DNA of 64,000 nt, from the IMG/VR virus record IMGVR_UViG_3300045988_180190. One strand, 5' to 3'. The position numbers and the translations under genes were made by a program. How positions within the stretch are numbered: position 1 is the stretch's first letter; every line of letters starts with the position of its first letter. The notes under the pieces were generated by a model. The model saw only the letters and a list, made by a program, of their open reading frames with translations. It was not told the DNA's origin and did no database searches. Origin of the DNA: a virus. Positions 8,962 to 64,000 of the stretch are shown here, one piece after another.

Positions 8962-10893
8962 TTATGATAATTTTTCTACAAGATTTATATTCTCCTTAGG
9001 AAGTATTACAGACAATGATCGAGCCCCAGCGCCATATAGTTGTAATTTATAATCTATCTCTTGTGGATCGAACGTAGTTAATTGCTGCTTTGTAGTAGTG
9101 CCTGTAAGCTGTACGCCCTTTGCATCCAAGTATGTTCCAGCACTGCCCAACATTAATGTAGACTGCATGCTTATATTTTGTACGCCAGTCGCTCCCATAG
9201 AAATCATTATATCAGAAATATATGCGTCTGAATAGCTAAGAGGGAATACTAAACTATTCATTAACTCATAAATCTTCTCAATTGCCGCCTGACGATCAAA
9301 AAATTTATTTGTTTCCTTCGTGTAGTTAACTGTAAAGTTTTGCACAAAGTAATAGTAACAGGATTTCACCTCTGTAGATATCGCTGGGTCACAGGCTGGA
9401 CTTGCCACAAAAGTAGCTAAAGATTCTACTATTGGATCATACTGATAGTCATACCGCATCCAGATGTAGCTGTCTACTGTACCATCTTCGTTTTGCTCCT
9501 CAGTGACATAATCAGTAAGATCCATTTGTTTAAAGCTACTCGGGAACGTAAACTGTGTCCCTCCTTGCGTTGGAGAGAAATTAAATGCGGTATAAAAATT
9601 TTTATCTGAGAAATTATAGAATTGATAAGGTATGTCATCGGAAAGTGGAGGTGCAGAGCTACCTTCCGAGTAATCGGCTGTGGGTGGGAATGTAGAATTA
9701 TAGCTTTTACGCACAATCGCTGGATTAAGTTGCACACTAAGAGTGGCTGCGTCTATTTCTGTAGAAGTGGAGAAAGCATCCTCCCCCTCTCCGGCAATAT
9801 TTAAGTTTAAACTACATACAGGATAGTGATTTAATCGAATAAAGGTTAAATCAGAAAGCGAAGGTGATTTATTTAATATACTCGGTTTTGTAGTGCCATA
9901 AAATCGATTAAATCCTGCATTGGGTGATACATAGCATTTAAAATACTCTGAGCACGTAGGTAGAGTTGACATCCCTCTCGCCCAGATATCAATAGCTGGA
10001 GAAAATGCGTATAAAGGATTATTTTCTGTCCTTACCATTTCAGCATCTCCCACTTTTGTAGGAGACACACCCGTAATCCCGGGGTATTTTTGCTCCACAA
10101 ACGATATAATATTATTTCTAGTAGCAAAATTTGCAGATGGCTGTATTTTTTGCGCAATTGTAATTAATTCAGCAAGAGTGGTGGGTGTTGTATAAGGGGC
10201 TATATCATAAGTCGCCACTACAGATTCTACGTCATCAAAAAAAGATAAATGCTCATTAATCCCAGCTTCATCACCTGCATTAACTTCTGCATTCGAAGGT
10301 CCGACTATCGGTATATCGACAAAATATAAATTTGGTTGAAAGTTATTTGAGGACTCCCCAACATTTACAGTATTGGATACAGACAAAAAGAAATAATTAC
10401 TGCTTGTATCAACGTATCCAGTATACCCATAAGGATAAATTTTAATGCTTGCATTTTTAGGAGTTGCATAATTAAAGATATAATTGTCGTTAAACTGCAA
10501 TAATTCACCTTTGTCCATTACATAGGGTTCCCTGCCAGTATTTCCAGGTCCATTGTAAATAAAGGATAAACGCGCAACACCCGTGGTATTTGCATCTACA
10601 AGGCTATCAACACCCAGTCCCCTTAGAAATTCAGTGACAAAACCACAGTCACAAACTACGCCATTAATAACATTTAATAAATCCATATCGGACAAAACAC
10701 ATTCTAGTGCTGTCTCGATCTGAGCCACAATCTTACCAAATCTTTCTATCAAGAATTTGCCCACTACGGAATTAGGGGAAAATCCGGTATCTGGAAATGA
10801 TTGAATTAATAAGATGCGCATTCTATCTTCACATTCTTGTAGCTTCGTGGGAGATAGAGTATCTGAGGAGGATATATAGTCGGTTAAATTCAT
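8962..10893 (-). CDS. hypothetical baseplate-position protein
   Basis: 643 aa counted from the ATG at 10893 (MNLTDYISS). The ORF-track start at 10926 overlaps the upstream gene. Confidence 0.6.
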   Translation of the reverse strand: MNLTDYISSSDTLSPTKLQECEDRMRILLIQSFPDTGFSPNSVVGKFLIERFGKIVAQIETALECVLSDMDLLNVINGVVCDCGFVTEFLRGLGVDSLVDANTTGVARLSFIYNGPGNTGREPYVMDKGELLQFNDNYIFNYATPKNASIKIYPYGYTGYVDTSSNYFFLSVSNTVNVGESSNNFQPNLYFVDIPIVGPSNAEVNAGDEAGINEHLSFFDDVESVVATYDIAPYTTPTTLAELITIAQKIQPSANFATRNNIISFVEQKYPGITGVSPTKVGDAEMVRTENNPLYAFSPAIDIWARGMSTLPTCSEYFKCYVSPNAGFNRFYGTTKPSILNKSPSLSDLTFIRLNHYPVCSLNLNIAGEGEDAFSTSTEIDAATLSVQLNPAIVRKSYNSTFPPTADYSEGSSAPPLSDDIPYQFYNFSDKNFYTAFNFSPTQGGTQFTFPSSFKQMDLTDYVTEEQNEDGTVDSYIWMRYDYQYDPIVESLATFVASPACDPAISTEVKSCYYYFVQNFTVNYTKETNKFFDRQAAIEKIYELMNSLVFPLSYSDAYISDIMISMGATGVQNISMQSTLMLGSAGTYLDAKGVQLTGTTTKQQLTTFDPQEIDYKLQLYGAGARSLSVILPKENINLVEKLS

Positions 10894-10897
10894 AAAT

Positions 10898-11458
10898 TTA
10901 AAATTCTGTTGATAGTTCAATTTCACCTATTACCGTTTGGTCGTCAAACGTGAATTGCAAAGTTAATATAGCTTTATCGTAGGAAAATTTATAAGGTGTT
11001 ACAACGATATTACTAATAGTATTTACGTAAGTAGTATTAGGTGTTACCGTTGAATCTATTGTATCTTGTTGTGAGGAAAAGTAGTTAGCAAGAGCATTAT
11101 TTAATGCTCCAATAGCTTGATTCTCAAAAAATTTAGTATCTGAACCTGCAAAATTACAAGTATGCGTAAGATAACTGGAATTCACTAATGCATAATTTAA
11201 GGTATCTTCCTGTAGGGTTGTGCCCTCATCCTCATTTAGAGGATTACTTCCCTGTCTCGTACCTATGTTTACCATGGAATCCTGAATAGTCGAGTCTTTT
11301 CCAGAATTTAAATTGTCGAAATCAAATGTTATATCTTCTGTCTTACCTGGTTCTACCGCACTAGCAAAATTTAATTTAACTCCCCTATTATATATTGGGG
11401 AGCTTGATTCTGCAGGGTTGGAAACATTACAAAGATACTTAAATTGTTGAGTTATCAT
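10898..11458 (-). CDS. hypothetical protein
   Basis: 186-aa ORF, tightly packed in the operon. Confidence 0.55.
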   Translation of the reverse strand: MITQQFKYLCNVSNPAESSSPIYNRGVKLNFASAVEPGKTEDITFDFDNLNSGKDSTIQDSMVNIGTRQGSNPLNEDEGTTLQEDTLNYALVNSSYLTHTCNFAGSDTKFFENQAIGALNNALANYFSSQQDTIDSTVTPNTTYVNTISNIVVTPYKFSYDKAILTLQFTFDDQTVIGEIELSTEF

Positions 11459-11463
11459 TACTG

Positions 11464-11790
11464 TCAGCTCTGGTTCATTTGGTTATTTAACATAGAAGTT
11501 GCTTGAAGTAAGTTGCTATTGTACAGTTTTTTATCAAGAGCAGAAGCATATAGCAATTTTCTTGAAGCATATCTGCTGATCGCATCTCGTTTTAGTGCAA
11601 AAGCAAATTGGTACTCTATCGCGTCTTTCGATTGTTCTGCCTCAGAGGCTTGGGACCTTAAGCTTCCCAATGTACTCATTATATTTCCATTATTTCCGGA
11701 TACGAGTTCACTGAATGACTTATAAGATTTTCCTTGTATAAAATCCGTTACATTGCTTATGGTTTTCGAAGCTAAGTCATTAATTGTCAT
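11464..11790 (-). CDS. hypothetical helical protein translationally coupled to the sigma factor gene
   Basis: 108 aa. 4-nt ATGA-type overlap with the 11787..12725 gene. Confidence 0.55.
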   Translation of the reverse strand: MTINDLASKTISNVTDFIQGKSYKSFSELVSGNNGNIMSTLGSLRSQASEAEQSKDAIEYQFAFALKRDAISRYASRKLLYASALDKKLYNSNLLQATSMLNNQMNQS

Positions 11791-12725
11791 GAGGCATATA
11801 CCTCCTCTAAAGTTTGTGACATTTGATTTAAATCCTTGGCAAAACGATTAGCTAATCGAGAAATTGTAGGCAGGGAAACGTTATATTTCTGAGAAATTTG
11901 TTGAGGGGATAATACTTTAGCACCCCCAAATCCAGTCAAGTGTTCGAATACTTTTTTTTGCTTATGGTCTAGGTCATTATAGACATATAACTGAGCTTCA
12001 TTTACAAAATCAGGTGCTTGTGCTGCGGTTTCATCCACAGCACCCTGAGATTCATCTTCAGCGTCTGCGGAAGTAAACATCTGATTTTCACTCACTTGTT
12101 TTACAGACTTATTGCGTATATCTACCAACTTTTTCAAAGATACCCCTGCGGCATCGGAAAGTTCAGTTAAGTCTGGATCTCTGCCATGCTTATCTATAAA
12201 TTCTTGCTCTGCCTGATTTATAGCTTGAGCTTCGTAAATGTATCTCTCTGGTATTTTTATAGGATTACGTAGGTCACGAGCAACTCGTGTCATTTTTCTT
12301 AATTGCGATGACACATATGTAGGAAGATTAACATTGTATCCGGGATCAAACTCTTTTATTGCCTTTGCGGCTATAAGTTTAGCTTTTGATTCAAGCAGGG
12401 GATCCCCTATAGCATTGTTAGACGCAAGTGAATAATTAATAGTATCTTTCAGGCTGTGTAAAACTTGAGATAACGCTTTTTTGTTTGGATTGGATTTATA
12501 AATCCGGTAAGCTTCCCCATAAGTTAATTTTGAATTATCGTTAACAAACGACTCAGGATCTTTATCCATGTAAGAAATAAAATCCATATTATCATTTAGG
12601 TCCTCATCGACCACTTTTATAGAGTCAAATGAGTCATTCTCTTTAGATTTTTTAGAATCCAAAGTAGGAAATGGTGATAATATGGACATGGTAGATTGCG
12701 GAGTATCTGTTGATAATTTAGTCAT
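11787..12725 (-). CDS. sigma-70 family RNA polymerase sigma factor
   Basis: 312 aa. Region 2-like FDPGYNVNLPTYVSSQLRKMTRVARDLRNPIKIPER. Region 3-like GRDPDLTELSDAAGVSLKKLVDI. Region 4 HTH-like KQKKVFEHLTGFGGAKVLSPQQISQKYNVSLPTISRLANRFAKDL. Confidence 0.75.
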   Translation of the reverse strand: MTKLSTDTPQSTMSILSPFPTLDSKKSKENDSFDSIKVVDEDLNDNMDFISYMDKDPESFVNDNSKLTYGEAYRIYKSNPNKKALSQVLHSLKDTINYSLASNNAIGDPLLESKAKLIAAKAIKEFDPGYNVNLPTYVSSQLRKMTRVARDLRNPIKIPERYIYEAQAINQAEQEFIDKHGRDPDLTELSDAAGVSLKKLVDIRNKSVKQVSENQMFTSADAEDESQGAVDETAAQAPDFVNEAQLYVYNDLDHKQKKVFEHLTGFGGAKVLSPQQISQKYNVSLPTISRLANRFAKDLNQMSQTLEEVYAS

Positions 12726-48543: not shown

Positions 48544-50820
48544 CTAAAATCTACCTGTTTTATCTACGTTTTCCGCAAAATCTGGCATAGACATTCTAAC
48601 GAACGGGTCTATATTGTCTTTAATATTTGTCTTATAACCTCTTACCGCAGATTCTACATAATTTTTAGCCTGGTAAGGAGCATTTGCTCTTTCCAAGAAA
48701 TCTGTATTTCCCTTATTGGGAACCTCTCTAAGTCTAACATACACAGGAGAAAAACCTGGTTCATTATCCGAAACATAAAGCTCATCTGTAATACCCGTGC
48801 GCTTAATATGGTCCAGCATCTTATTTGTAAGTTTTGTTCCTATTGTGTAATGTAATACTGGGGCTTGCAAGTATTTGCCTTTTAAATTAACATTTTTATC
48901 ATTGAGCTTTACTTTTTTTGCATCTTTGTCCGGTACATAAGAAGCCTCTAAAGCATTATAAGATACTATATCGCCAGGTAAGTAATCTCCTAATCCATCT
49001 GGATCGGTAATTTCTACCTTATCTACGATACCTCTAGCTAGGACTTCTAAATTTCTTTTATGCGCCGGTGCGTTACTATCGTCCAGTAGCTGTTTTCCCG
49101 TTTCCACGAAAACTCTCCTACCTTCCCCGAGTCCTCTTAGGCGTACAACGTCCTCTAAGTCTACTAAACCATCTGCTAGCTGGTCTCCCTGCTCGACTTC
49201 TTGACCTTCTTTAACTTCTATGTGAGAATCCGGGTCAGCATAATGCTCTATTCCATTAACAACTATATAAGTTCCACCTTGAGGAGCTGGTGTTATTCTT
49301 TCCACTCTCCCATCTGATTCTGCTAGAGGGGCACGAGATTTATAGTGCTCTGGAGATTCAAAAAACTGGTTAATATAATTAAATCCCGAAAAGGTTCTCT
49401 TCTTTCCTTTGAATCCCCCAGCTTCGTGTTTTGAAGAATTATGTGACAAGAGACCATTTTTTAATACGAATAAATGTGTATCTCCACTAATTTCTATGTC
49501 AAAACAATGCTGCAATCCTACATAGCGAATCTGTGTAATCTTCGCAGGGTCACCCCTTACGTCTAAACATAAATTTGAGTCAAATATTTCTTGCACTGGA
49601 AGGTCTTTTAATTCTCCGTATATTTTAAATCTATGTTGTCTAGTACAAACAACAGAATACTCTATATCATCAACAGAAAATATAACCTCATATACATTGC
49701 GAATATTCTGGTCTATAACAGAAATGATTTCCTCAGGAACTAGTGACTTACCATCTTTAGAGATACTTATTACCTTCTCCCCTGGTTTTAAATCCTTAAT
49801 TTTTTTAAACTGCTGTGACCATAGCATAACTTCTGTATCTTGATGCAAGCATAGTCCGCCCTGAATAGCAGGCTCACTAACAGAAGTTGCCGCTGCAATT
49901 CCTGCATGGAACTCTCCAATTCTAGGCAATCTTTTATTGTAATCCAATCCAAAAGCTTCTGCAGAAATACCTTCGGGAGAAACTGTGGCAATTGGAGAAT
50001 GCACTATCACAGTTTTTACACCTTTATTTTTAAGAGAATTTAGTACGTCACGATCAACTATGGTTCCCTCAGCAAATCCTCCCGCCGGACGCGCAAGCAC
50101 TCGTCCGTAAAGTGATGAGTCGTCTATGTCTAAGTCTATACCATTATTGGAAAGATCTTTTTTAGACGTAATCATCATATTTGCCACTGGGCGAAATAAA
50201 CTTTTACCCCAACCTCCAAATTTAGCTGTACTTTTTTTGATAGCGATAGTTGAAGCTCTTGTACCATAAGTGCTAGCTAAATATTCTGGAATGGATAATC
50301 CTTCTCCAAAACTTTTCTTAACAAAGAAAGGAATCGTTCTACCCTTATAATCTGTATAGAGTGCTGGAGTTGTAATTAAAGCTTTTAACTGAAAGGGAGA
50401 ACCTCTTGCTCCAGAGGATACAGAGTTATAAAGATTATTATGCTTTTCTTTAGCAGCATTCAGTGTATCTTTCTCAAGCTTTGTAGCATAACGTTCGTAT
50501 ACCTCCATTATAGCTTTGTTCTTTTTGTTTTCATCTTTTATATTCCTCCTTAAAAACTGCACCTCTTTATGCATTTCTTCCAGTGCAGCTTCCTTATCAA
50601 ATGGAGGTTTAAAATCCGAAAGTTTCAAAGTCTGTCCAGAGTAGTATACTGATTTACGAGCAATATCCATTAATTTATCCATTATATCCCTGTATCTGTC
50701 TGGATATTTTTCAGCAATAAGAGACTGCAACTCGTTTATTGACTTCGTGTCATATGTGCGAGTGTAGTCCCTTATATCCTCGGGTAAAACGGAATTAATT
50801 AAATATTGAATAGCTTTCAC
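48544..50820 (-). CDS. multisubunit RNA polymerase beta-prime subunit, C-terminal fragment, interrupted by a mini-intein
   Basis: 758 aa. SSGARGSPFQLKALIT, bridge-helix-like YLASTYGTRASTIAIKKSTAKFGGWGKSLFRPV, and trigger-loop-like SVSEPAIQGGL[intein]SSKHEAGGF match beta-prime motifs as I recall them (SGARG; GEPGTQLTMRTFH.GG). Confidence 0.8.
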   Translation of the reverse strand: MKAIQYLINSVLPEDIRDYTRTYDTKSINELQSLIAEKYPDRYRDIMDKLMDIARKSVYYSGQTLKLSDFKPPFDKEAALEEMHKEVQFLRRNIKDENKKNKAIMEVYERYATKLEKDTLNAAKEKHNNLYNSVSSGARGSPFQLKALITTPALYTDYKGRTIPFFVKKSFGEGLSIPEYLASTYGTRASTIAIKKSTAKFGGWGKSLFRPVANMMITSKKDLSNNGIDLDIDDSSLYGRVLARPAGGFAEGTIVDRDVLNSLKNKGVKTVIVHSPIATVSPEGISAEAFGLDYNKRLPRIGEFHAGIAAATSVSEPAIQGGLCLHQDTEVMLWSQQFKKIKDLKPGEKVISISKDGKSLVPEEIISVIDQNIRNVYEVIFSVDDIEYSVVCTRQHRFKIYGELKDLPVQEIFDSNLCLDVRGDPAKITQIRYVGLQHCFDIEISGDTHLFVLKNGLLSHNSSKHEAGGFKGKKRTFSGFNYINQFFESPEHYKSRAPLAESDGRVERITPAPQGGTYIVVNGIEHYADPDSHIEVKEGQEVEQGDQLADGLVDLEDVVRLRGLGEGRRVFVETGKQLLDDSNAPAHKRNLEVLARGIVDKVEITDPDGLGDYLPGDIVSYNALEASYVPDKDAKKVKLNDKNVNLKGKYLQAPVLHYTIGTKLTNKMLDHIKRTGITDELYVSDNEPGFSPVYVRLREVPNKGNTDFLERANAPYQAKNYVESAVRGYKTNIKDNIDPFVRMSMPDFAENVDKTGRF
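49438..49851 (-). other. mini-intein (residues 324-461 of the beta-prime fragment)
   Basis: Starts with Cys (CLHQDTEVML). Block B VVCTRQHRF. Blocks F/G CFDIEISGDTHLFVLKNGLLSHN, followed by Ser+1. About 138 aa, with no endonuclease-sized insert. Confidence 0.8.
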
Positions 50821-57762: not shown

Positions 57763-58590
57763 CTATCTCCTAATATTGTTTTTATACATATTCGCCCAAG
57801 GGTTACGTTCTTTAAGTTGACCCTTGTCATTAGGAATAGTTATTGGTGTAAAACCACTATCTGGTGTCACAATAGGATTATTAACATCAAATTCTCTATC
57901 TAGGTTTATTTGTGGTGCAGAAGGAGGTTGTTCTAGTTGTATTAAAGGTTTTCTATTCTGGCTGGTACTGGGAATTGGGGTGTTTGTTGGGGCTGTGCTA
58001 CTTCTAGAATTATTTGATGGTGTAAGCCCAAGATCTCGCTCTAGTGCATTAATTGTTGTAGTCCATCTTAAGGTAGGATTCTTTTTGGTCCTCATCCACT
58101 CCTGCTCTCTTCTCCAAACTGCAGAATCTCTAAGGTTGCGTATAATTCCGGCATAGTCTCCCTTTGCAAGTGACTCTCTAAACTTTGGCCAATTTGCAAG
58201 ATTTGCATTAAACCCTAGTGTTGCAAGTCGGTTTTGTGCACTTATGGGAAGCTTATTAAATCCTTTTAATTTACGTACACTTACATTATTCTTAAAATAC
58301 CAATCTTGTAATTGGCTTGATATATTCCTTGGTATATGTGCACCCACCTTTAGGTCACCAGTATACTTTAGTTTTTTACGTAGATACTCTTGAACCTCTG
58401 GGTATAATTTTACCCCTCCTGGTAAAGTTGGAATATCCTTATCGGCTAAATCTGCTGAGTCCATGTAAATTAAATCATTATTTTTTACCCCCCAGCCTTC
58501 AAACTTACGCAAATCATTTAATGATTGTGCGTAATCATACACTTTTGAAGATGTGGCAGCAAATTTTCTAAAGTTACTTATCTTTATCAT
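57763..58590 (-). CDS. NF-x-KFA-tagged lysozyme-like (GH24/T4-lambda lysozyme-type) protein
   Basis: 275 aa. N-terminus MIKISNFRKFAATS. LRKFEGWG...YMDSAD...PTLPGG fits the E..D..T catalytic pattern. LATLGFNANLANWPKFRESLAKGDYAGIIRNLRDSAVWRRE resembles the T4-lysozyme C-lobe. Confidence 0.5.
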   Translation of the reverse strand: MIKISNFRKFAATSSKVYDYAQSLNDLRKFEGWGVKNNDLIYMDSADLADKDIPTLPGGVKLYPEVQEYLRKKLKYTGDLKVGAHIPRNISSQLQDWYFKNNVSVRKLKGFNKLPISAQNRLATLGFNANLANWPKFRESLAKGDYAGIIRNLRDSAVWRREQEWMRTKKNPTLRWTTTINALERDLGLTPSNNSRSSTAPTNTPIPSTSQNRKPLIQLEQPPSAPQINLDREFDVNNPIVTPDSGFTPITIPNDKGQLKERNPWANMYKNNIRR

Positions 58591-59119
58591 TTTCTGTTTT
58601 AATCTTTATTGTACCTAAAGAATCTTTATTAAAAAGTAAACTCTCGTCAAAATCAAAATAAACTGATGTGGATTCTTCTTTTTTTATATTAAAGTAAACA
58701 GCAACCTTTTTTGCAATATTTCCATAGTTCTCCCTTACTATGTGTATTGACCCCTCTACTACATTACTTATTTTTGACCTTATTAAATCTTTAATTGCAG
58801 TATCGTCTTTATATACTTTCTGCAAATCTTGAATAAAGGTCTTGTCCTCGAGAATAGCTTTAGCCGTTATATTCTGCTCTGTTGAATCTACAGAATTCTC
58901 AGGATTATACACTTTTAATCCAGGTACAACCTTACAAAATATGCTATTCCAAATAAAAGTAAGTATGTATCTAGTTAATCTATATAAAGGTGTAGACTTT
59001 GATACACAAGGTAAGCTTATGTAAATTACACCTGCTACAAAGACTACAACAATTGCTATGCTAATTGCCATAGTAGAATCCGTAAAAAAATTAAAATCTG
59101 CAAGACTTTGTGTTTCCAT
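58574..59119 (-). CDS. membrane-anchored hypothetical protein
   Basis: 181 aa. N-terminal span MAISIAIVVVFVAGVIYISL. Confidence 0.55.
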   Translation of the reverse strand: METQSLADFNFFTDSTMAISIAIVVVFVAGVIYISLPCVSKSTPLYRLTRYILTFIWNSIFCKVVPGLKVYNPENSVDSTEQNITAKAILEDKTFIQDLQKVYKDDTAIKDLIRSKISNVVEGSIHIVRENYGNIAKKVAVYFNIKKEESTSVYFDFDESLLFNKDSLGTIKIKTENDKDK

Positions 59120-59207
59120 GGTGTAAAAGTCTTGCAGATTTTATAAATTAATCAATCCAAATGTTATACTATTTACATATCAACTAAGGTAAATATCCAT
59201 CTTTAAG

Positions 59208-60335
59208 TTAGGAATCTTTACCTGAATTATTATACCAATTTGAAATATTTTTACCAAATGACTTTAAAGGTTTCATCCAATCTGATAAAGTTCGAGAGGC
59301 AGCTTGAATACGCTTCTTAGCCGTATCTACTCCTGTCTCTACTGCTTTTCCGATAGGTTGTACAACTCTATTATCAAATTTCTCTCCTGGAGTTAAAACA
59401 GCAGCAGCGTGGGACCTCGCATCTCTAGGTGCTATGATATTTTTTCCAATTACATTCTTGCTATTTTTGGCATCATTTAGTCTATCCACAAAATTCGCAT
59501 TTGCCTGCATTTGGGAAGCCACGGCTTTACCTATTGTAGAACCCGTCATACCCGCTTTCTCCTTTATCTTATTAATTATTGATGGAGCCTTCCTCTTCAT
59601 CTCCTGCTTATAATTGCTTAAAGCAAGCCTGTACATTGCTGCTTCAGTAGTTAAGTTTTTGCGCTCAGTCGGGGATAAACTTGTGTCTTTCGCTCTACTG
59701 CTTAACTCTTTAATCTTAGCTTGGTAGCCTGCTACTGTGGAATTCCATTTGTCAGACTCAGCTTTCATAAGCTTGTTATATTTATCTTCCGCAGTATCTA
59801 TAGTTTTCTGCATCTCTGGATTAAGCACGGTGGATTTATCCATGCCTAATACTTTTGTAAGCATATTATATCTCTTGTTATAGGCATCATCAGAGGCACC
59901 AGTGAGCGGACTTGACCTATACGTGTTCAACTCCTCTGGAGATAAATTACGCGCTCCTTCTCTAAGAGAAGAAATATAATCAGCAAAATTTATTTTTTCT
60001 CTCTTCCCAGCGTCTATATGGTCTATGGATCTCTGTTCTGAAAGAGACAATGGAACTTGAGTTGTGCCTTTTGCAAGAAAATAAAGTTGGTTTAAAAACC
60101 CGTTACCTTGTAAATTTCCTTGTTTATCATATTTTAGAAGAGACCTCCATAAAGGATCACTCCAAGAATTATAACGATCAAAAATTCCTAAATACCTATC
60201 ACCTTTATTCCTCAAGCTGGGTATATTTTGCTTTGGATACAAAGAGTCGTAATCCTCCGCAAGCTCCGGAAAGTACTTGCGGAGGTAGTTATAATTTAAA
60301 GGTTCAGAATTACCCATATAATTTAGTTTATCCAA
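59208..60335 (-). CDS. hypothetical Lys-rich helical protein
   Basis: 375-aa ORF. 8-nt overlap with the upstream gene. Confidence 0.6.
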   Translation of the reverse strand: MDKLNYMGNSEPLNYNYLRKYFPELAEDYDSLYPKQNIPSLRNKGDRYLGIFDRYNSWSDPLWRSLLKYDKQGNLQGNGFLNQLYFLAKGTTQVPLSLSEQRSIDHIDAGKREKINFADYISSLREGARNLSPEELNTYRSSPLTGASDDAYNKRYNMLTKVLGMDKSTVLNPEMQKTIDTAEDKYNKLMKAESDKWNSTVAGYQAKIKELSSRAKDTSLSPTERKNLTTEAAMYRLALSNYKQEMKRKAPSIINKIKEKAGMTGSTIGKAVASQMQANANFVDRLNDAKNSKNVIGKNIIAPRDARSHAAAVLTPGEKFDNRVVQPIGKAVETGVDTAKKRIQAASRTLSDWMKPLKSFGKNISNWYNNSGKDS

Positions 60336-61279
60336 AATTTATTGGATTATCCTGTAAGTATTTAGCTAAAGCTCCAAGACCCAATCCTCCGATTCCTAAC
60401 CCTAAGGCTCCTTTCCAACCTCCGGCAAGTCCACCTATTCCAGATCCTAGGAGTGCCGGTATGGCATAATAAGATAATTCAGGGTTATCCTTAACAAATT
60501 TTTGAAGGTCTCCAATTGTCGAGCGTACAGTCCAGGGTGAATTTTTATCGGATAAACTACTCCCAGCATATCCCGCTAAACCTCCAGCTCCAAAACCACC
60601 AATGTAGGGCATTGCAGCTCTTACATAAGGATTTTTAACTTTAGATGCCGCACGTCCTATACCTTCAAGAACTTTGTTAGCTTTACCTGAAGATTTCGAT
60701 AATAATCTGCTTAATCTTTCATTTGGTTTACCATAAGCAGCGTAATATCTCTTTTTTAAACGTTCAGGATAATTTTCTGCAGTTTCCAAACGTTTTGCTT
60801 TAGCGTCTAACTCCTTATTTAAGATATTTAATGCTTTCTGACTTTCATCCACATATGCAGCATGTGTGGCTCTTTGGGCATCTAATTCTTTATTTACACG
60901 TCCCAAATTATTTTCTGCAGTTCCTAGGAGTTCGGTTTTAGCACCTAATTCTTTCTTTTAGCCTATTTAATTCTTTATTTGCACGCTCAAAATTATTTTG
61001 AGCAGCAGCCAACTCTTCTCTTGCCTTACGTAAAGCAGGACTTGTTCTCGGCTTAGTCGTAGTTGGCTTTTTAGATCGTAAGGGAGCTTTTTTATTTCTC
61101 ATTCTGTTTAATAATGCTGCGCCACCTATAGCCCCTGACATTCCACCTCCCACAACTAAAGATGTTAAAGGATCTATGGTTTCAGCACCATAATCAAAGG
61201 GATCTCCCTGTATGCCTGGTACTAAATTGGTTTCTGGAAGATTATCCGCAAATTTATTAAAATTAGAAGTGTTCATCAT
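60328..61279 (-). pseudogene. glycine-zipper paralog split by a +1 frame change (ORFs 60938..61279 and 60328..60906)
   Basis: The upstream ORF carries the tag MMNTSNFNKFA and a Gly-rich span. The downstream ORF has no ATG before residue 99 and carries the family C-terminus. Its frame is open from 60957, and the two frames overlap only across 60941-60957. Confidence 0.55.
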
Positions 61280-61339
61280 AATTAACTTATTATATTCAGT
61301 GTGCTAATTAACACAAATTTTTAAAAATCTGTCAATTGT
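61280..61339 (-). promoter_or_regulatory. conserved upstream block, copy 1 (TAATTA-centred imperfect palindrome)
   Basis: tattcagtgtgctaattaacacaaattttt. Palindrome tgtgctaattaacaca at 61300-61315. Confidence 0.45.
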
Positions 61340-62341
61340 TTATCCAAAATTTACTGGATTATCCTGTAAGTATTTAGCTAATGCACCGAGTCCCAATCCT
61401 CCTAATCCTAGTCCTAGTGCACCTTTCCATCCTCCGGCAAGCCCACCTATTCCAGATCCTAGGAGTGCCGGTGCAGCATAATAAGCTAATTCAGGATTTT
61501 CGTTAATAAATTTTTTAAGATTTTCAGCTGTTGTTCCAAGGAAATTTCCTGAGTCTTTAGCACCTAAAGCTTGGCTGCCAGCTGCGCCTAGTCCAAAACC
61601 CCCAATCCATGGCAGCGCTGCTTTCACATAAGGATTTTTAGCTTTAGATGCCGCACGTCCTATACCCTTAAATACTCTACTTGATGCACCGCCTAATCCT
61701 CTTTTAGCAGCAACTTCTTTAATGGTAGATGAAGAACCCGGTATGTTTCTTAATCCATTTATGCTTCTTCCTTGAGTTCTTGTTGAAAGATTTGCAGGTT
61801 CTGGGAGAGCCGTTAGTCTGGAAGAAGCATTTCCTTTACCAGGTCTTAAGCCTTCTTCCACAGGTAGTCCAAGAGCTTCTCTTAGTCTTGCTCTTTCCTT
61901 CGGGGATAGATTGCTAATCTTAGAGTATAAAGCGTTACCCATAAGACCTGCTGGGCTCCTATGGACTCCTTGGGTAGCTCCTGAATTTAATCTATCAAAA
62001 TACTCCTTACTTGATGCGCGGAATCTTTCTATAGCTTCTCGTTTTGCTTTTTCTCTAGCTTTTCTACTACGTATCCTAGCTAGTCTGGCATATGTTAAAC
62101 CTCCTGCGGCTCCCCCTATACCACCAACAACCTTTAGGCTATCACTTAGCGAACCATCCGAATCAGACTCTAAACTAGGGTCGTACGAAACAGCGGTGCC
62201 CTGTGTTGCAGAAGAAGGATCTGAAAAATTTTCTGCTTGCGCGGGATTTGCATTAGCTAAACCTGGAGACATTTTGTTCACAGCCTTTTGTTCTTGAGGA
62301 CCCAATCCTGCAAATTTATTAAAATTAGAAGTATTCATCAT
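61340..62341 (-). CDS. NF-x-KFA-tagged glycine-zipper protein (full-length paralog)
   Basis: 333 aa. MMNTSNFNKFAGLGPQ... C-terminus GSGIGGLAGGWKGALGLGLGGLGLGALAKYLQDNPVNFG. Confidence 0.7.
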   Translation of the reverse strand: MMNTSNFNKFAGLGPQEQKAVNKMSPGLANANPAQAENFSDPSSATQGTAVSYDPSLESDSDGSLSDSLKVVGGIGGAAGGLTYARLARIRSRKAREKAKREAIERFRASSKEYFDRLNSGATQGVHRSPAGLMGNALYSKISNLSPKERARLREALGLPVEEGLRPGKGNASSRLTALPEPANLSTRTQGRSINGLRNIPGSSSTIKEVAAKRGLGGASSRVFKGIGRAASKAKNPYVKAALPWIGGFGLGAAGSQALGAKDSGNFLGTTAENLKKFINENPELAYYAAPALLGSGIGGLAGGWKGALGLGLGGLGLGALAKYLQDNPVNFG

Positions 62342-62400
62342 AATTAAATTATTGTATTCAGTGTGCTAATTAACACAAATTTTTGAAAATATGTAAAGTA
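62342..62400 (-). promoter_or_regulatory. conserved upstream block, copy 2
   Basis: Nearly the same sequence as copy 1 (palindrome at 62362-62377), plus atgtaaagtatttatg, which is shared with copy 3. Confidence 0.45.
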
Positions 62401-62454
62401 TTTATGGAAAATTTAAATAAAAATAGTGCTGTTACATCACCATCGATATATACC

Positions 62455-62904
62455 TTATATCGGATTATCTTTTAAATATCTAGCTAATGCACCTAGGCCC
62501 AATCCTCCTAATCCTAGTCCAAGTGCACCTTTCTTACCCCAAGCATAACCACCTAATAAAGAACCCAAGAGTGTAGGTGCAATGTAGTAGGTTACCTCCG
62601 GGTTAGCATCCATGAATTGTTTAAGCTTTTTAGTCGTTGACTGATATACATTATCTGGAGTTCTTTGTGCATCAATATATTCTCCCAAGCCATAGAGCCC
62701 TATACCCCCTATTAGAGGCACTTGCTGTCTTCTTAAAGCTTTTCCTTTAGATACTGCGGAGGCAAGTAAAGCACCTCCTACTGTTCCACCACCTACAGCC
62801 TTAAGTAGAAGTGGTAAGCTCTCGTCACCTGCTTGCTGCAGCTCAGAACTCCGAGAATCAGGACCCGATCCCGCAAATTTATTAAAATTAGAAGTGTTTA
62901 TCAT
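62455..62904 (-). CDS. NF-x-KFA-tagged glycine-zipper protein (short paralog)
   Basis: 149 aa. MINTSNFNKFAGSGPD... C-terminus GALGLGLGGLGLGALARYLKDNPI. Confidence 0.7.
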   Translation of the reverse strand: MINTSNFNKFAGSGPDSRSSELQQAGDESLPLLLKAVGGGTVGGALLASAVSKGKALRRQQVPLIGGIGLYGLGEYIDAQRTPDNVYQSTTKKLKQFMDANPEVTYYIAPTLLGSLLGGYAWGKKGALGLGLGGLGLGALARYLKDNPI

Positions 62905-62973: not shown

Positions 62974-63948
62974 TTACTTTTTAGGCAATATGACGATCTC
63001 GTCAGAAAGTTTAATTTTCCCAGAGTTTAACCCATCCATTAATTCCTTCTCACTATTTAAAATCCATTTATTCTTTGCAGGTGTCGTAATTTGAGAGTTA
63101 GGTCCTAATATGTAATCTTGCTTTAATTTGTTAACCACCCTATAATCTCTTGCTGAGAATATTTGCTTAGAAGGTAAAAGGCGTTCTTTAATGTCTGCCT
63201 GTGCCTCGGGTAATGCGGGAACATGAACATTCATTGTATTCGAAAGTACAACGCCGCTATAATTAATAAAGGTTTCATACCCCGGAACTGTAAGGTCATA
63301 GCCGTCCAGATAAACTCCCGTATCCTCAATCAGATCAATAGTCGCAAACTCTAAACCTGGTTTATTAATCCAGTTAGCAAAATCATAGTTATCGTCAGTT
63401 TCTAAAACAAATTGTTTTAATTCTTTATCATAAGAAACTAAGGTAATAATTCCTACTCGATAAAATTCCTTTTGCACATCCCTTATTTCATTAAAATCAT
63501 CAAAGAATAAAGGAAATATAAATTCATCTTTGCTATATTTATGCTCTGCAAGCACTGAACATACAGGGATATTAATATCCAGTTCTTTAGCTTCCTCTGG
63601 TGTATGTCTTTCGTATTTTCCGGTATTTTTATTTAATCCATAGATTGCCCTTGGATCATCGTCCGTAAAAATCTGCAAGCCATTGGATAATGTAACAATA
63701 ACCAGTCGTCGTTTTGGATGTATTGAAAAACAACTTACATCAGCCCAGTCCCAACAGCCCTTATCTTCATTAAAAGCCAATGCTTTTAAATCCTGTGTTT
63801 CATAAAAATAAATGGGTCCGTTTTTACCTTCCGGATTTACATTAGTCAATTTACCATGAGGTATTTCAGACAAATCGGCCAAAAATACCGAATAACCCTC
63901 CGGAATATCTGGTAAATTTAAAAGCTCTGGATTTTTAATTGATTGCAT
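62974..63948 (-). CDS. RNA polymerase beta-prime fragment (segment just after the catalytic loop), preceded by a Hint/intein domain
   Basis: 324 aa. C-terminal 87 aa TMNVHVPALPEAQADIKERLL..KQDYILG match beta-prime QMAVHVPLS.EAQ......SQDVVLG as I recall it. Residues ~20-237 look like a mini-intein (..DLTVPGYETFINYSGVVLSN/T). Confidence 0.7.
   Translation of the reverse strand: MQSIKNPELLNLPDIPEGYSVFLADLSEIPHGKLTNVNPEGKNGPIYFYETQDLKALAFNEDKGCWDWADVSCFSIHPKRRLVIVTLSNGLQIFTDDDPRAIYGLNKNTGKYERHTPEEAKELDINIPVCSVLAEHKYSKDEFIFPLFFDDFNEIRDVQKEFYRVGIITLVSYDKELKQFVLETDDNYDFANWINKPGLEFATIDLIEDTGVYLDGYDLTVPGYETFINYSGVVLSNTMNVHVPALPEAQADIKERLLPSKQIFSARDYRVVNKLKQDYILGPNSQITTPAKNKWILNSEKELMDGLNSGKIKLSDEIVILPKK
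63238..63891 (-). other. Hint/mini-intein-like domain (N-terminal boundary uncertain)
   Basis: C-terminal blocks FATIDLIEDTGVYLDGYDLTVPGYETFINYSGVVLSN, then Thr+1. Internal LAFNEDKGCWDWADVSCFSIHPKRRLVIVTLSNGLQIFTDDDP follows the strand pattern of DnaB-type mini-inteins. Block-B His and the penultimate His are replaced (D, S). Confidence 0.6.
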
Positions 63949-64000
63949 TATTAGGATTTAATAATGCATAAACAAAAGCATATGTCAAAAAAAAAAAAAC

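Follow-up and report, generated by a model that had tools for sequence, protein, structure and literature searches.

The viral record IMGVR_UViG_3300045988_180190 of IMG/VR was analysed over a stretch of 64,000 nucleotides, the whole of which is referred to here as the window. The subject of the analysis is a 324-residue open reading frame (ORF) close to the high-coordinate end of this stretch. It most likely encodes the C-terminal fragment of a split intein (IntC), followed by the last 87 residues of the N-terminal β′ subunit (β′N) of a phage RNA polymerase (RNAP). The parts of the ORF were assigned as follows.

62974–63948, minus strand: the whole ORF, 324 residues from an ATG start, consisting of IntC and, as C-extein, the last 87 residues of the phage RNAP β′N
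63238–63948, minus strand: IntC, residues 1–237, a Hint fold minus only its first strand(s)
62974–63237, minus strand: C-extein, residues 238–324 plus the stop codon, TMNVHVPALPEAQ...KQDYILG...PKK
63235–63243, minus strand: C-terminal splice junction, Ser236-Asn237/Thr238 (here and below, a slash marks the intein/extein boundary)
63646–63675, minus strand: equivalent of intein block B, QIFTDDDPRA, residues 92–101
63718–63720, minus strand: His77, invariant among split-type homologs
63238–63303, minus strand: blocks F and G, GYDLTVPGYETFINYSGVVLSN, residues 216–237, in which Asp218 is the Asp at F:4

A preliminary description of the locus had read the last 87 residues as the β′ segment that follows the NADFDGD catalytic loop and the preceding 237 residues as a Hint/intein domain, and both assignments were upheld. 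For comparison with solved RNAPs and inteins, a profile (A1) was built from 34 homologs of the ORF. Profile positions 247–329 aligned to residues 745–829 of Thermus thermophilus β′ (E 1.9e-6), and positions 247–297 aligned to residues 466–515 of Escherichia coli β′ (E 0.076). The β′ alignment starts at the second residue past NADFDGD and places Thr238 at the position of E. coli Gln465. By this measure, residues 238–324 (TMNVHVPALPEAQ...) are homologous to the β′ segment directly after NADFDGD, and the C-extein comprises the β′ double-psi β-barrel strand and the segment after the catalytic loop. As had been reported, no DFDGD motif is present within the 324-residue ORF, and an in-frame TAA lies at 63958–63960, three codons 5′ of the ATG. 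This start codon is conserved among homologs.

An AlphaFold2 model of the ORF had a mean predicted local distance difference test score of 81, with values of ~90 across most of the intein part. The top 44 matches to this model returned from the PDB by Foldseek were every one an intein or an intein-like BIL domain. The best was the TFIIB Mvu mini-intein (5o9i; E 6e-7), and the others included Pho RadA, the Aes123 PolB1 split intein, DnaE and KlbA (2jmz). The profile also matched TFIIB mini-inteins by sequence (E 3e-8). The Pfam Intein_splicing match to the ORF was weak by itself (E 0.043), and searches of the ORF against PHROGs and Pfam gave marginal matches only. Taken together, the model and the profile matches assign a Hint/intein fold to residues ~17–237. 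IntC has no homing-endonuclease domain, and a linker of ~100 residues is left between blocks B and F.

Several residues of this fold are atypical. Block B reads TDDDP, in which Thr95 is kept and Asp98 occupies the position of the His of TxxH; Asp96, Asp98, Arg100 and Ala101 are invariant among split-type homologs. Block F contains no His, and F:4 is not Cys. The lack of both the block-B His and the penultimate His (SN), to which the preliminary description had drawn attention, was seen in the ORF and in its homologs. In the profile alignment, the His of the family consensus ywsvH (FSIH in the ORF), His77, lies opposite the His of "SRH" in TFIIB inteins. A histidine of motif NX is specific to cysteine-independent inteins; PolB16 requires it but can dispense with the block-B His (Pasch et al. 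2023). On the basis of the alignment, His77 is provisionally taken as this motif-NX histidine, the paper itself naming no TFIIB residue.

The sequence past position 64000 was available from two independent assemblies: contig k99_111689 of ENA ERZ27260674 (169.9 kb, locus L002) and Logan ERR1110353_546 (locus L003). The window matched these with 0 mismatches over 11,027 nt, and a window coordinate equals 73949 minus the L002 coordinate. In both assemblies, a gene for a 1135-residue β-β′ fusion protein lies past the window edge, with its stop codon 540 nt upstream of the IntC ATG, and carries the Pfam domains RNA_pol_Rpb2_6, Rpb1_1 and Rpb1_2. Its product ends ...GADFDGD/CQWGHVFVCIRNS, that is, ...LVSTGLGADFDGD/CQWGHVFVCIRNS and ...LLPPLVSTGLGADFDGD/CQWGHVFVCIRNS, followed in each case by the stop codon. 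The 13 residues after GADFDGD resemble intein block A in having Cys1, Gly4 and a hydrophobic strand. A β′ N-fragment ending in the catalytic loop, sought beyond position 64000 at the suggestion of the earlier description, is present there as GADFDGD plus a 13-residue N-intein stub. In the 4 kb 5′ of the ATG, only one 12-nt repeat indel and one substitution distinguish the assemblies. Given this near-identity, neither the stop codon nor the 540-nt gap is an assembly error, and misassembly can be set aside as the source of the stops upstream of the ORF.

By alignment, residue 1 of the intein in the window lineage is the Cys encoded on the upstream gene. S20, S27, C65 and C73, among which the first nucleophile had previously been sought, are not conserved. 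The ORF is most likely the larger, C-terminal part of a split intein whose partner is the upstream β-β′ gene with its 13-residue N-terminal intein fragment (IntN). In eight further loci that are 93–98% identical, the upstream β-β′ gene ends in CQWGHVF plus 5–6 variable residues (VCIRNS, VCLRNS, VCLRDS, VCVRNS, LLTKS or LLIKS); a ninth close locus, L010, has no upstream flank and was left out of this comparison. The β-β′ and IntC ORFs are both intact in every close relative.

The position of the break is defined by a contiguous mini-intein in relative P0169, located within a 1420-residue β-β′ protein as GGDFDGD/CQNAFIYVKTQNE-GLPDDSVKIYITDMSSFP..., with GLPD after the part equivalent to the stub. 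This intein aligns end to end with the stub plus the ORF. Given that the 13-residue stub equals residues 1–13 of the P0169 intein, the break is placed after intein residue 13. The profile alignment to solved TFIIB mini-inteins opens at their residue 15, which IntC matches from residue ~17 onward, and the break corresponds to the S1 position of split-site nomenclature, at which the natural split inteins VidaL and PolB16 OarG are also divided. The suggestion that a gene had undergone fission at an intein insertion site is correct in part, the break lying inside the intein itself. IntN is 13 residues in the window lineage and 12 in relatives. The same split point is kept in homologs down to 32% identity. 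In a 37%-identical split relative (P0018, locus L032), the N-fragment ends ...ADNDGD/DQIAFVYVAIKK at a stop codon, and an IS605 tnpA/tnpB pair and then IntC follow. Further stubs of 13–19 residues were found on the β′ N-fragments P0046, P0047, P0089, P0152 and P0164, with D, C, S or Q at residue 1. At L031 and L033, no polymerase gene was found within 10 kb upstream of IntC, and the partner genes were not found there. A second break position was observed in other members, with N-fragments of 43–59 residues (P0109, P0154, P0161, P0156 and P0162; L024/L025 at 9802–12052). The two ORFs of L024/L025 lie in different frames and overlap, so that either a frameshift or another natural split site is possible.

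An exhaustive profile search for the family returned 1161 cluster representatives at E ≤ 0.001 and 239 at E ≤ 1e-30. Most members are giant contiguous β-β′ proteins of 1000–3500 residues, in which an element of 370–670 residues, usually with a LAGLIDADG domain, lies directly after DFDGD; the insertion site of the family is always immediately after this motif. Residue counts were made without constraining the scored positions. Residue 1 (n = 98) is Q in 36 members, A in 14, D in 12, E in 11, C, S, L and Y in 4 each, G in 3, and N, F and K in 2 each. A non-nucleophile thus occupies this position in 92%, and Cys or Ser in only 8 of the 98, the window lineage having Cys. Block B is always TDDDPRA-like, with no His at the usual position (n = 98). 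The penultimate residue (G:6) is Ser in 151 of 154 members, and both the C-terminal Asn and Thr at +1 occur in 154 of 154. The residue after DFDGD in intein-less alleles (n = 104) is A in 69, T in 21, Q in 13 and N in 1. Cys is found at intein position 2 in 14 of 98 members, for example DFDGD/QCINQILACIP; these include P0180, P0186, P0190, P0194, P0195, P0197, P0207, P0209 and P0211. A tblastn search of the ORF against GenBank phages found nothing, and the literature searched contained no account of an intein at NADFDGD or in the multisubunit polymerases of phages. An intein is known to exist in the archaeal Mja rPol A′. The IntC ORFs carry the label "hypothetical" in public data, and the family is unannotated.

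The C-terminal boundary of the ORF was compared with that of related polymerases. Most relatives retrieved with the last 400 residues of the upstream gene are intein-less β′N subunits of ~375 residues, which end 85–90 residues past DFDGD with the pattern DFDGD[A/T/Q/N]MNLHVPS...LKHEQVLGLY.... Given this spacing, the 87-residue C-extein ends at the natural end of β′N in this phage group. The closest relative, P0045 (57% identity), is intein-less and reads DFDGD/TMTVHVP. Excision of the intein would give GADFDGD followed by TMNVHVP, with the same spacing as in intein-less DFDGD[A/T/Q/N]MNLHVP and E. coli DFDGDQMAVHVP.

The arrangement can be explained by the following model, in which two proteins would be produced from separate transcription units and would most likely be joined by trans-splicing to give GADFDGD-TMNVHVP, both the association of the halves and their ligation being inferred. 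The 13-residue stub would provide the missing first Hint strand(s) to the 237-residue IntC, as in an atypical split of the S1 type. In the reassembled intein, the N-extein acyl group would move from Asp(−1) to Thr238, either by way of a thioester at Cys1 or by direct attack of Thr+1 in the manner of class 2, the route that most members of the family would have to take. Cyclisation of Asn237 would then free the intein, and an O-to-N acyl shift would give the continuous chain ...GADFDGD-TMNVHVP..., spaced as in the canonical NADFDGD-QMAVHVP. The predicted junction peptide of the ligated chain is GADFDGDTMNVHVPALPEAQADIK. The product would be a complete β(C)-β′(N) subunit ending at the natural end of β′N, with β′C remaining separate. 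Split inteins with short N-fragments do trans-splice, the examples being 15 residues for a natural and 11 residues for an engineered fragment; association of the 13-residue stub with IntC is suggested here by the alignments.

Several observations weigh against this model. In most inteins the N-terminal scissile bond is activated by the block-B His; here an invariant Asp takes its place, and Ser stands in for the penultimate His. Because residue 1 is Cys or Ser in so few members, the canonical class 1 route cannot be the mechanism of the family, and the Cys1 of the window lineage may be incidental. No precedent for class-2-like attack of a Thr hydroxyl on an amide was found in the literature searched, and the class 2 inteins that have been described use Cys+1 and require the block-B His (B:10).

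With regard to mechanistic class, the family has the C-terminal Asn and the Cys/Ser/Thr residue at +1 expected of an intein, and lacks the Thr-x-x-His of block B. As in established split inteins, the halves have separate genes: IntN is short and stops after the first strand(s), and IntC contains the rest of the fold. The Cys, Ser or Thr that class 1 has at residue 1 is represented by Cys1 in the window lineage, where it makes a class 1 route chemically possible, and by those 8 of 98 members family-wide. Direct, class-2-like attack of Thr+1 would be the simplest reading for most members. Class 3 was ruled out, F:4 being the invariant Asp218 and not Cys, and so was a BIL domain, since Thr+1 is invariant and BIL domains have no +1 nucleophile. 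Membership of class 2 (KlbA type) was also considered: Ser at G:6 fits, but Thr+1, the Asp at B:10, the RNAP host and the Cys1 present here do not. The family may work like class 2 without being a member of it. From its residues, it looks like a derivative of oxyester (Ser1/Thr+1) inteins in which residue 1 and the block-B His have both been given up.

The two halves might, alternatively, dock through the split Hint fold without ligation, with either Asn cyclisation only, which would free the 87-residue piece, or no chemistry at all, so that the polymerase would be held together non-covalently. In its favour, the family lacks the block-B His and the penultimate His and, in 92% of members, an N-terminal nucleophile, and the β′ of these phages already consists of distinct N and C subunits. 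Such an outcome is nevertheless considered unlikely. Thr+1 is present in 154 of 154 intein-bearing sequences, as opposed to 20% of intein-less alleles, and its invariance argues against cleavage or docking alone because neither needs a +1 nucleophile. Set against the 66% of intein-less alleles that have Ala at this position, it is the strongest comparative argument for ligation over cleavage alone. For the same reason, a degenerate intein kept for C-terminal cleavage only, as proposed in the preliminary description, is not favoured, the residue being mixed in intein-less alleles. Without ligation, moreover, an intein and endonuclease of 370–670 residues would, in contiguous relatives, stay attached directly to the third catalytic Asp. 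In established RNAP structures, an unexcised domain of 240–670 residues on this Asp would lie at the floor of the active-site cleft, which constitutes a steric argument against retention. The combination of Ser at G:6 with a non-nucleophilic residue 1 is also the class 2 signature, and class 2 inteins splice.

The region between the two genes was examined for elements that might separate or join them. In L002, the order is two hairpins, a 63-residue ORF, an abiF motif, a 16-bp hairpin with a T13 run, a promoter-like site and the IntC ATG. The features are as follows.

L002 9478–9607, outside the window: two tandem perfect hairpins of 20–21 bp directly after the β-β′ stop codon, formed by 52-nt units that are 71% identical, terminator-like on both strands
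L002 9844–9881, ~70 nt beyond position 64000: Rfam abiF RNA motif RF03085 (43.4 bits against a gathering score of 37; E 2.6e-6), between the endonuclease remnant described below and the terminator that precedes the IntC ORF
63985–64000, minus strand: T13 run and the last bases of the 16-bp terminator-like hairpin, the stem of which lies mostly past the window end
63961–63988, minus strand (L002 9961–9988): promoter-like site TTGACA-16 nt-CATTAT, a consensus match only, directly 5′ of the ATG

The 16-bp hairpin with T13, which is terminator-like, would close the upstream transcription unit ahead of the IntC ORF. No group I or II intron model was matched in an Rfam scan of the gap (L002 9000–10400), which returned only the abiF motif and chance microRNA-like matches on the hairpins. 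Direct repeats flanking the gap were looked for and none was found, and no recombinase is encoded in the gap of the window genome. With no match to an Rfam intron model, no flanking repeats, and both terminators and a promoter-like site, the gap is intergenic and not an intron, and the unit bearing IntN is a separate gene, neither an exon nor joined to the ORF through an intron. The earlier suggestion of an upstream exon or gene outside the window is accordingly retained for a gene, present in both assemblies, and not for an exon.

The distance from the β-β′ stop codon to the IntC ATG in the close loci is 0.54, 1.0, 1.26, 5.0, 5.4, 6.0 or 6.6 kb. In L001, a 95%-identical relative, the gap holds six genes, including those for a 518-residue LAGLIDADG endonuclease, a methylase-like protein and an NAD-dependent DNA ligase. 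The 63-residue gap ORF of the window genome is the decayed N terminus of the L001 endonuclease (79% identity over 33 residues), such that the free-standing endonuclease between the halves is an intact gene in L001 and a remnant in the window genome. The L001 enzyme is homologous to the LAGLIDADG domain within contiguous and split members of the family (26% identity over 206 residues; E 1e-13). Genes of the IS200/IS605 type, tnpA (Y1 transposase) and tnpB, were observed directly 5′ of the IntC ORF in two distantly related split loci, L031 (8380–9894) and L032 (8353–9873). The gap between the halves seems to serve as a landing pad for mobile DNA.

Mobile debris of this kind (the 63-residue endonuclease remnant, and the IS605 genes in L032) is what would be expected if an insertion had broken an intein-containing β′ gene and the ORF were now decaying. 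The signs of continued function make a dead, disrupted polymerase gene very improbable. Both ORFs are intact in every relative, and dN/dS (the ratio of nonsynonymous to synonymous substitution rates) is ~0.08 for the intein, with values of 0.04–0.29 for the intein part of the ORF in the close clade. The CQWGHVF codons show synonymous changes only, the tail of the stub being variable. The split point is kept to 32% identity, the start codon is conserved with a promoter-like site upstream of it, and the remaining polymerase subunit genes are intact. The split arrangement is conserved and under purifying selection, and the gene is not the relic of fission that it had earlier been suspected to be. 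Joining of the halves at the level of nucleic acid (by a group I or II intron, programmed cassette excision or translational bypass) followed by cis-splicing is hardly credible: phages of this kind are intron-rich according to the literature, and the overlapping frames at the break in L024/L025 make a frameshift conceivable, but the gap contains terminators and matches no intron model, holds up to six ordinary genes in relatives, NAD-dependent DNA ligase among them, has no flanking direct repeats and, in the window genome, no recombinase, and two relatives have no polymerase gene within 10 kb upstream.

Trans-splicing of the two products thus remains the preferred reading, and the pattern of divergence around the intein was analysed further. 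When the window genome is compared with L001, nucleotide identity stands at 93–100% from ~35 nt 5′ of the ATG to the intein/extein junction and falls to 63–80% in the C-extein and the N-extein, beyond which the sequences are unalignable. Identity recovers over the final ~150 nt of the N-extein gene. Synonymous divergence (dS) is saturated in the exteins and ~0.1 in the intein. This is the pattern expected of recent lateral transfer of the intein cassette into diverged polymerase alleles. A sharp mosaic boundary at the intein/extein junction was also seen on comparison of L002 with L009 (window ~62974–63985). P0002 presents the converse: its extein is almost the same and its intein has diverged far more (71% identity overall).

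The closest likenesses in architecture are to the PolB16 OarG and VidaL inteins, which also come from phage or metagenomic sequences and also have a very short IntN, ending after the first Hint strands, and a large IntC. PolB16 does not need the block-B His and relies on the motif-NX His, the motif to which His77 of the ORF is taken to belong. The stated range for natural atypical IntN fragments is 15–37 residues, with PolB16 OarG at 15 ("record-short") and VidaL at 16; at 13 residues, and 12 in relatives, the IntN described here falls below this range. The present family differs further in having Asp in place of the block-B His and no conserved nucleophile at residue 1; its host is RNAP β′, with the site after DFDGD, and its splicing is predicted from sequence. 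The layout in L001, with a free-standing endonuclease between the halves, is that of the fractured genes of Dassa et al. (2009; PMC2677866). The abstract of that paper refers to enzymes of DNA synthesis and repair, whereas the host here is an RNA polymerase, and the break described here is at the far N-terminal S1 position and not at the endonuclease insertion point. In the window genome, moreover, the endonuclease has decayed, and relatives have gained cargo (the ligase, the methylase-like gene and IS605).

In terms of residues, the family has in common with class 2 inteins (Mja KlbA orthologs) the non-nucleophilic residue 1, Ser at G:6, Asp at F:4 and the C-terminal Asn. The signature of this class is Ser at G:6 with a non-nucleophilic residue 1, and all its members are KlbA orthologs. 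Unlike KlbA, the family has Thr and not Cys at +1, Asp and not His at B:10 and a different host protein, and the window copy has Cys1. The best fold and sequence matches to the ORF are the cysteine-independent class 1 mini-inteins of Mja and Mvu TFIIB and Pho RadA. These have, like the ORF, YDLTVP in block F, Thr+1 and a His aligned with His77; they also have Ser1, the block-B TxxH and a C-terminal His-Asn, whereas the DFDGD-site family has none of these three.

Split inteins, S1 splits and fractured genes are already known; the chemistry of the family has a substantial chance of being new. It is quite possible, if somewhat short of probable, that the DFDGD-site elements are mechanistically novel in having no nucleophile at residue 1, an invariant Asp-x-Asp-Pro-Arg-Ala in place of the block-B His, Ser at G:6, an obligate Thr+1 and direct attack by this Thr, even in trans with an IntN of 12–13 residues. 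In such a mechanism, the Thr hydroxyl would attack the amide between Asp(−1) and residue 1, possibly aided by the invariant catalytic Asp at −1. Class-2-like splicing would then have arisen independently a second time, for the first time with an oxygen nucleophile, and the IntN would be the shortest natural one.

If trans-splicing does take place, the peptide bond beside the third catalytic Asp would be made post-translationally from the products of two separately transcribed genes, and the polymerase active centre would be absent until both halves meet. The preliminary description had called this an unusual way to build such a centre, and that assessment holds. An IntN of 12–13 residues is suited to protein semisynthesis and labelling, and those relatives that combine Asp or Gln at residue 1 with Thr+1 would not depend on cysteine. 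The conserved residues fit none of the three accepted classes, which makes the family a test system for activation of the N-terminal scissile bond without Cys1/Ser1 or a block-B His. Recognition of the IntC ORFs also completes the polymerase gene set of uncultured phages of ~100–210 kb.

The remainder of β′ is encoded by a separate gene within the window.

48544–50820, minus strand: β′C subunit gene, 758 residues, with Pfam domains Rpb1_4 and Rpb1_5

This gene is interrupted by a canonical class 1 mini-intein (GGL/CLHQDT...CTRQHRF...LLSHN/SSKH), and the β part of the upstream gene bears another intein (GDKM/CYHPDT...TSNHR...FSGN/S). The polymerase genes of this phage thus contain at least three inteins (at the DFDGD site, in the β part and in β′C), and the other polymerase subunit genes are intact. 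Given that the other inteins carry canonical residues, the odd residue set is specific to the DFDGD-site element and not phage-wide.

The nearest deposited phage polymerases, those of Vibrio phage D181 and Salmonella phage Arash, are ~27% identical. When 20 other ORFs of the window were searched against PHROGs, 19 were unmatched, and the sole match was that of the β′C gene to an unannotated family. These results suggest a phage lineage that is uncultured and poorly sampled, its genome being ~170 kb. A scan of genome contigs matched two contigs from actinobacterial metagenome-assembled genomes and gave no clue to the host of the phage.

Nearly all ORFs of at least 100 residues in the window lie on the minus strand. 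Directly downstream of the IntC ORF, a run of small minus-strand ORFs extends over 57763–62904, none with a PHROG match. The N-terminal motif M[MI]NTSNFNKFA[GD] is common to those at 62455–62904, 61340–62341 and 60938–61279, and is weaker in that at 57763–58590. A Gly-rich C-terminal motif, ...GGLGLGALAKYLQDNP[IV]NFG, is common to those at 62455–62904, 61340–62341 and 60328–60906. From these motifs, the small ORFs look like a family of paralogs with a common targeting or processing signal.

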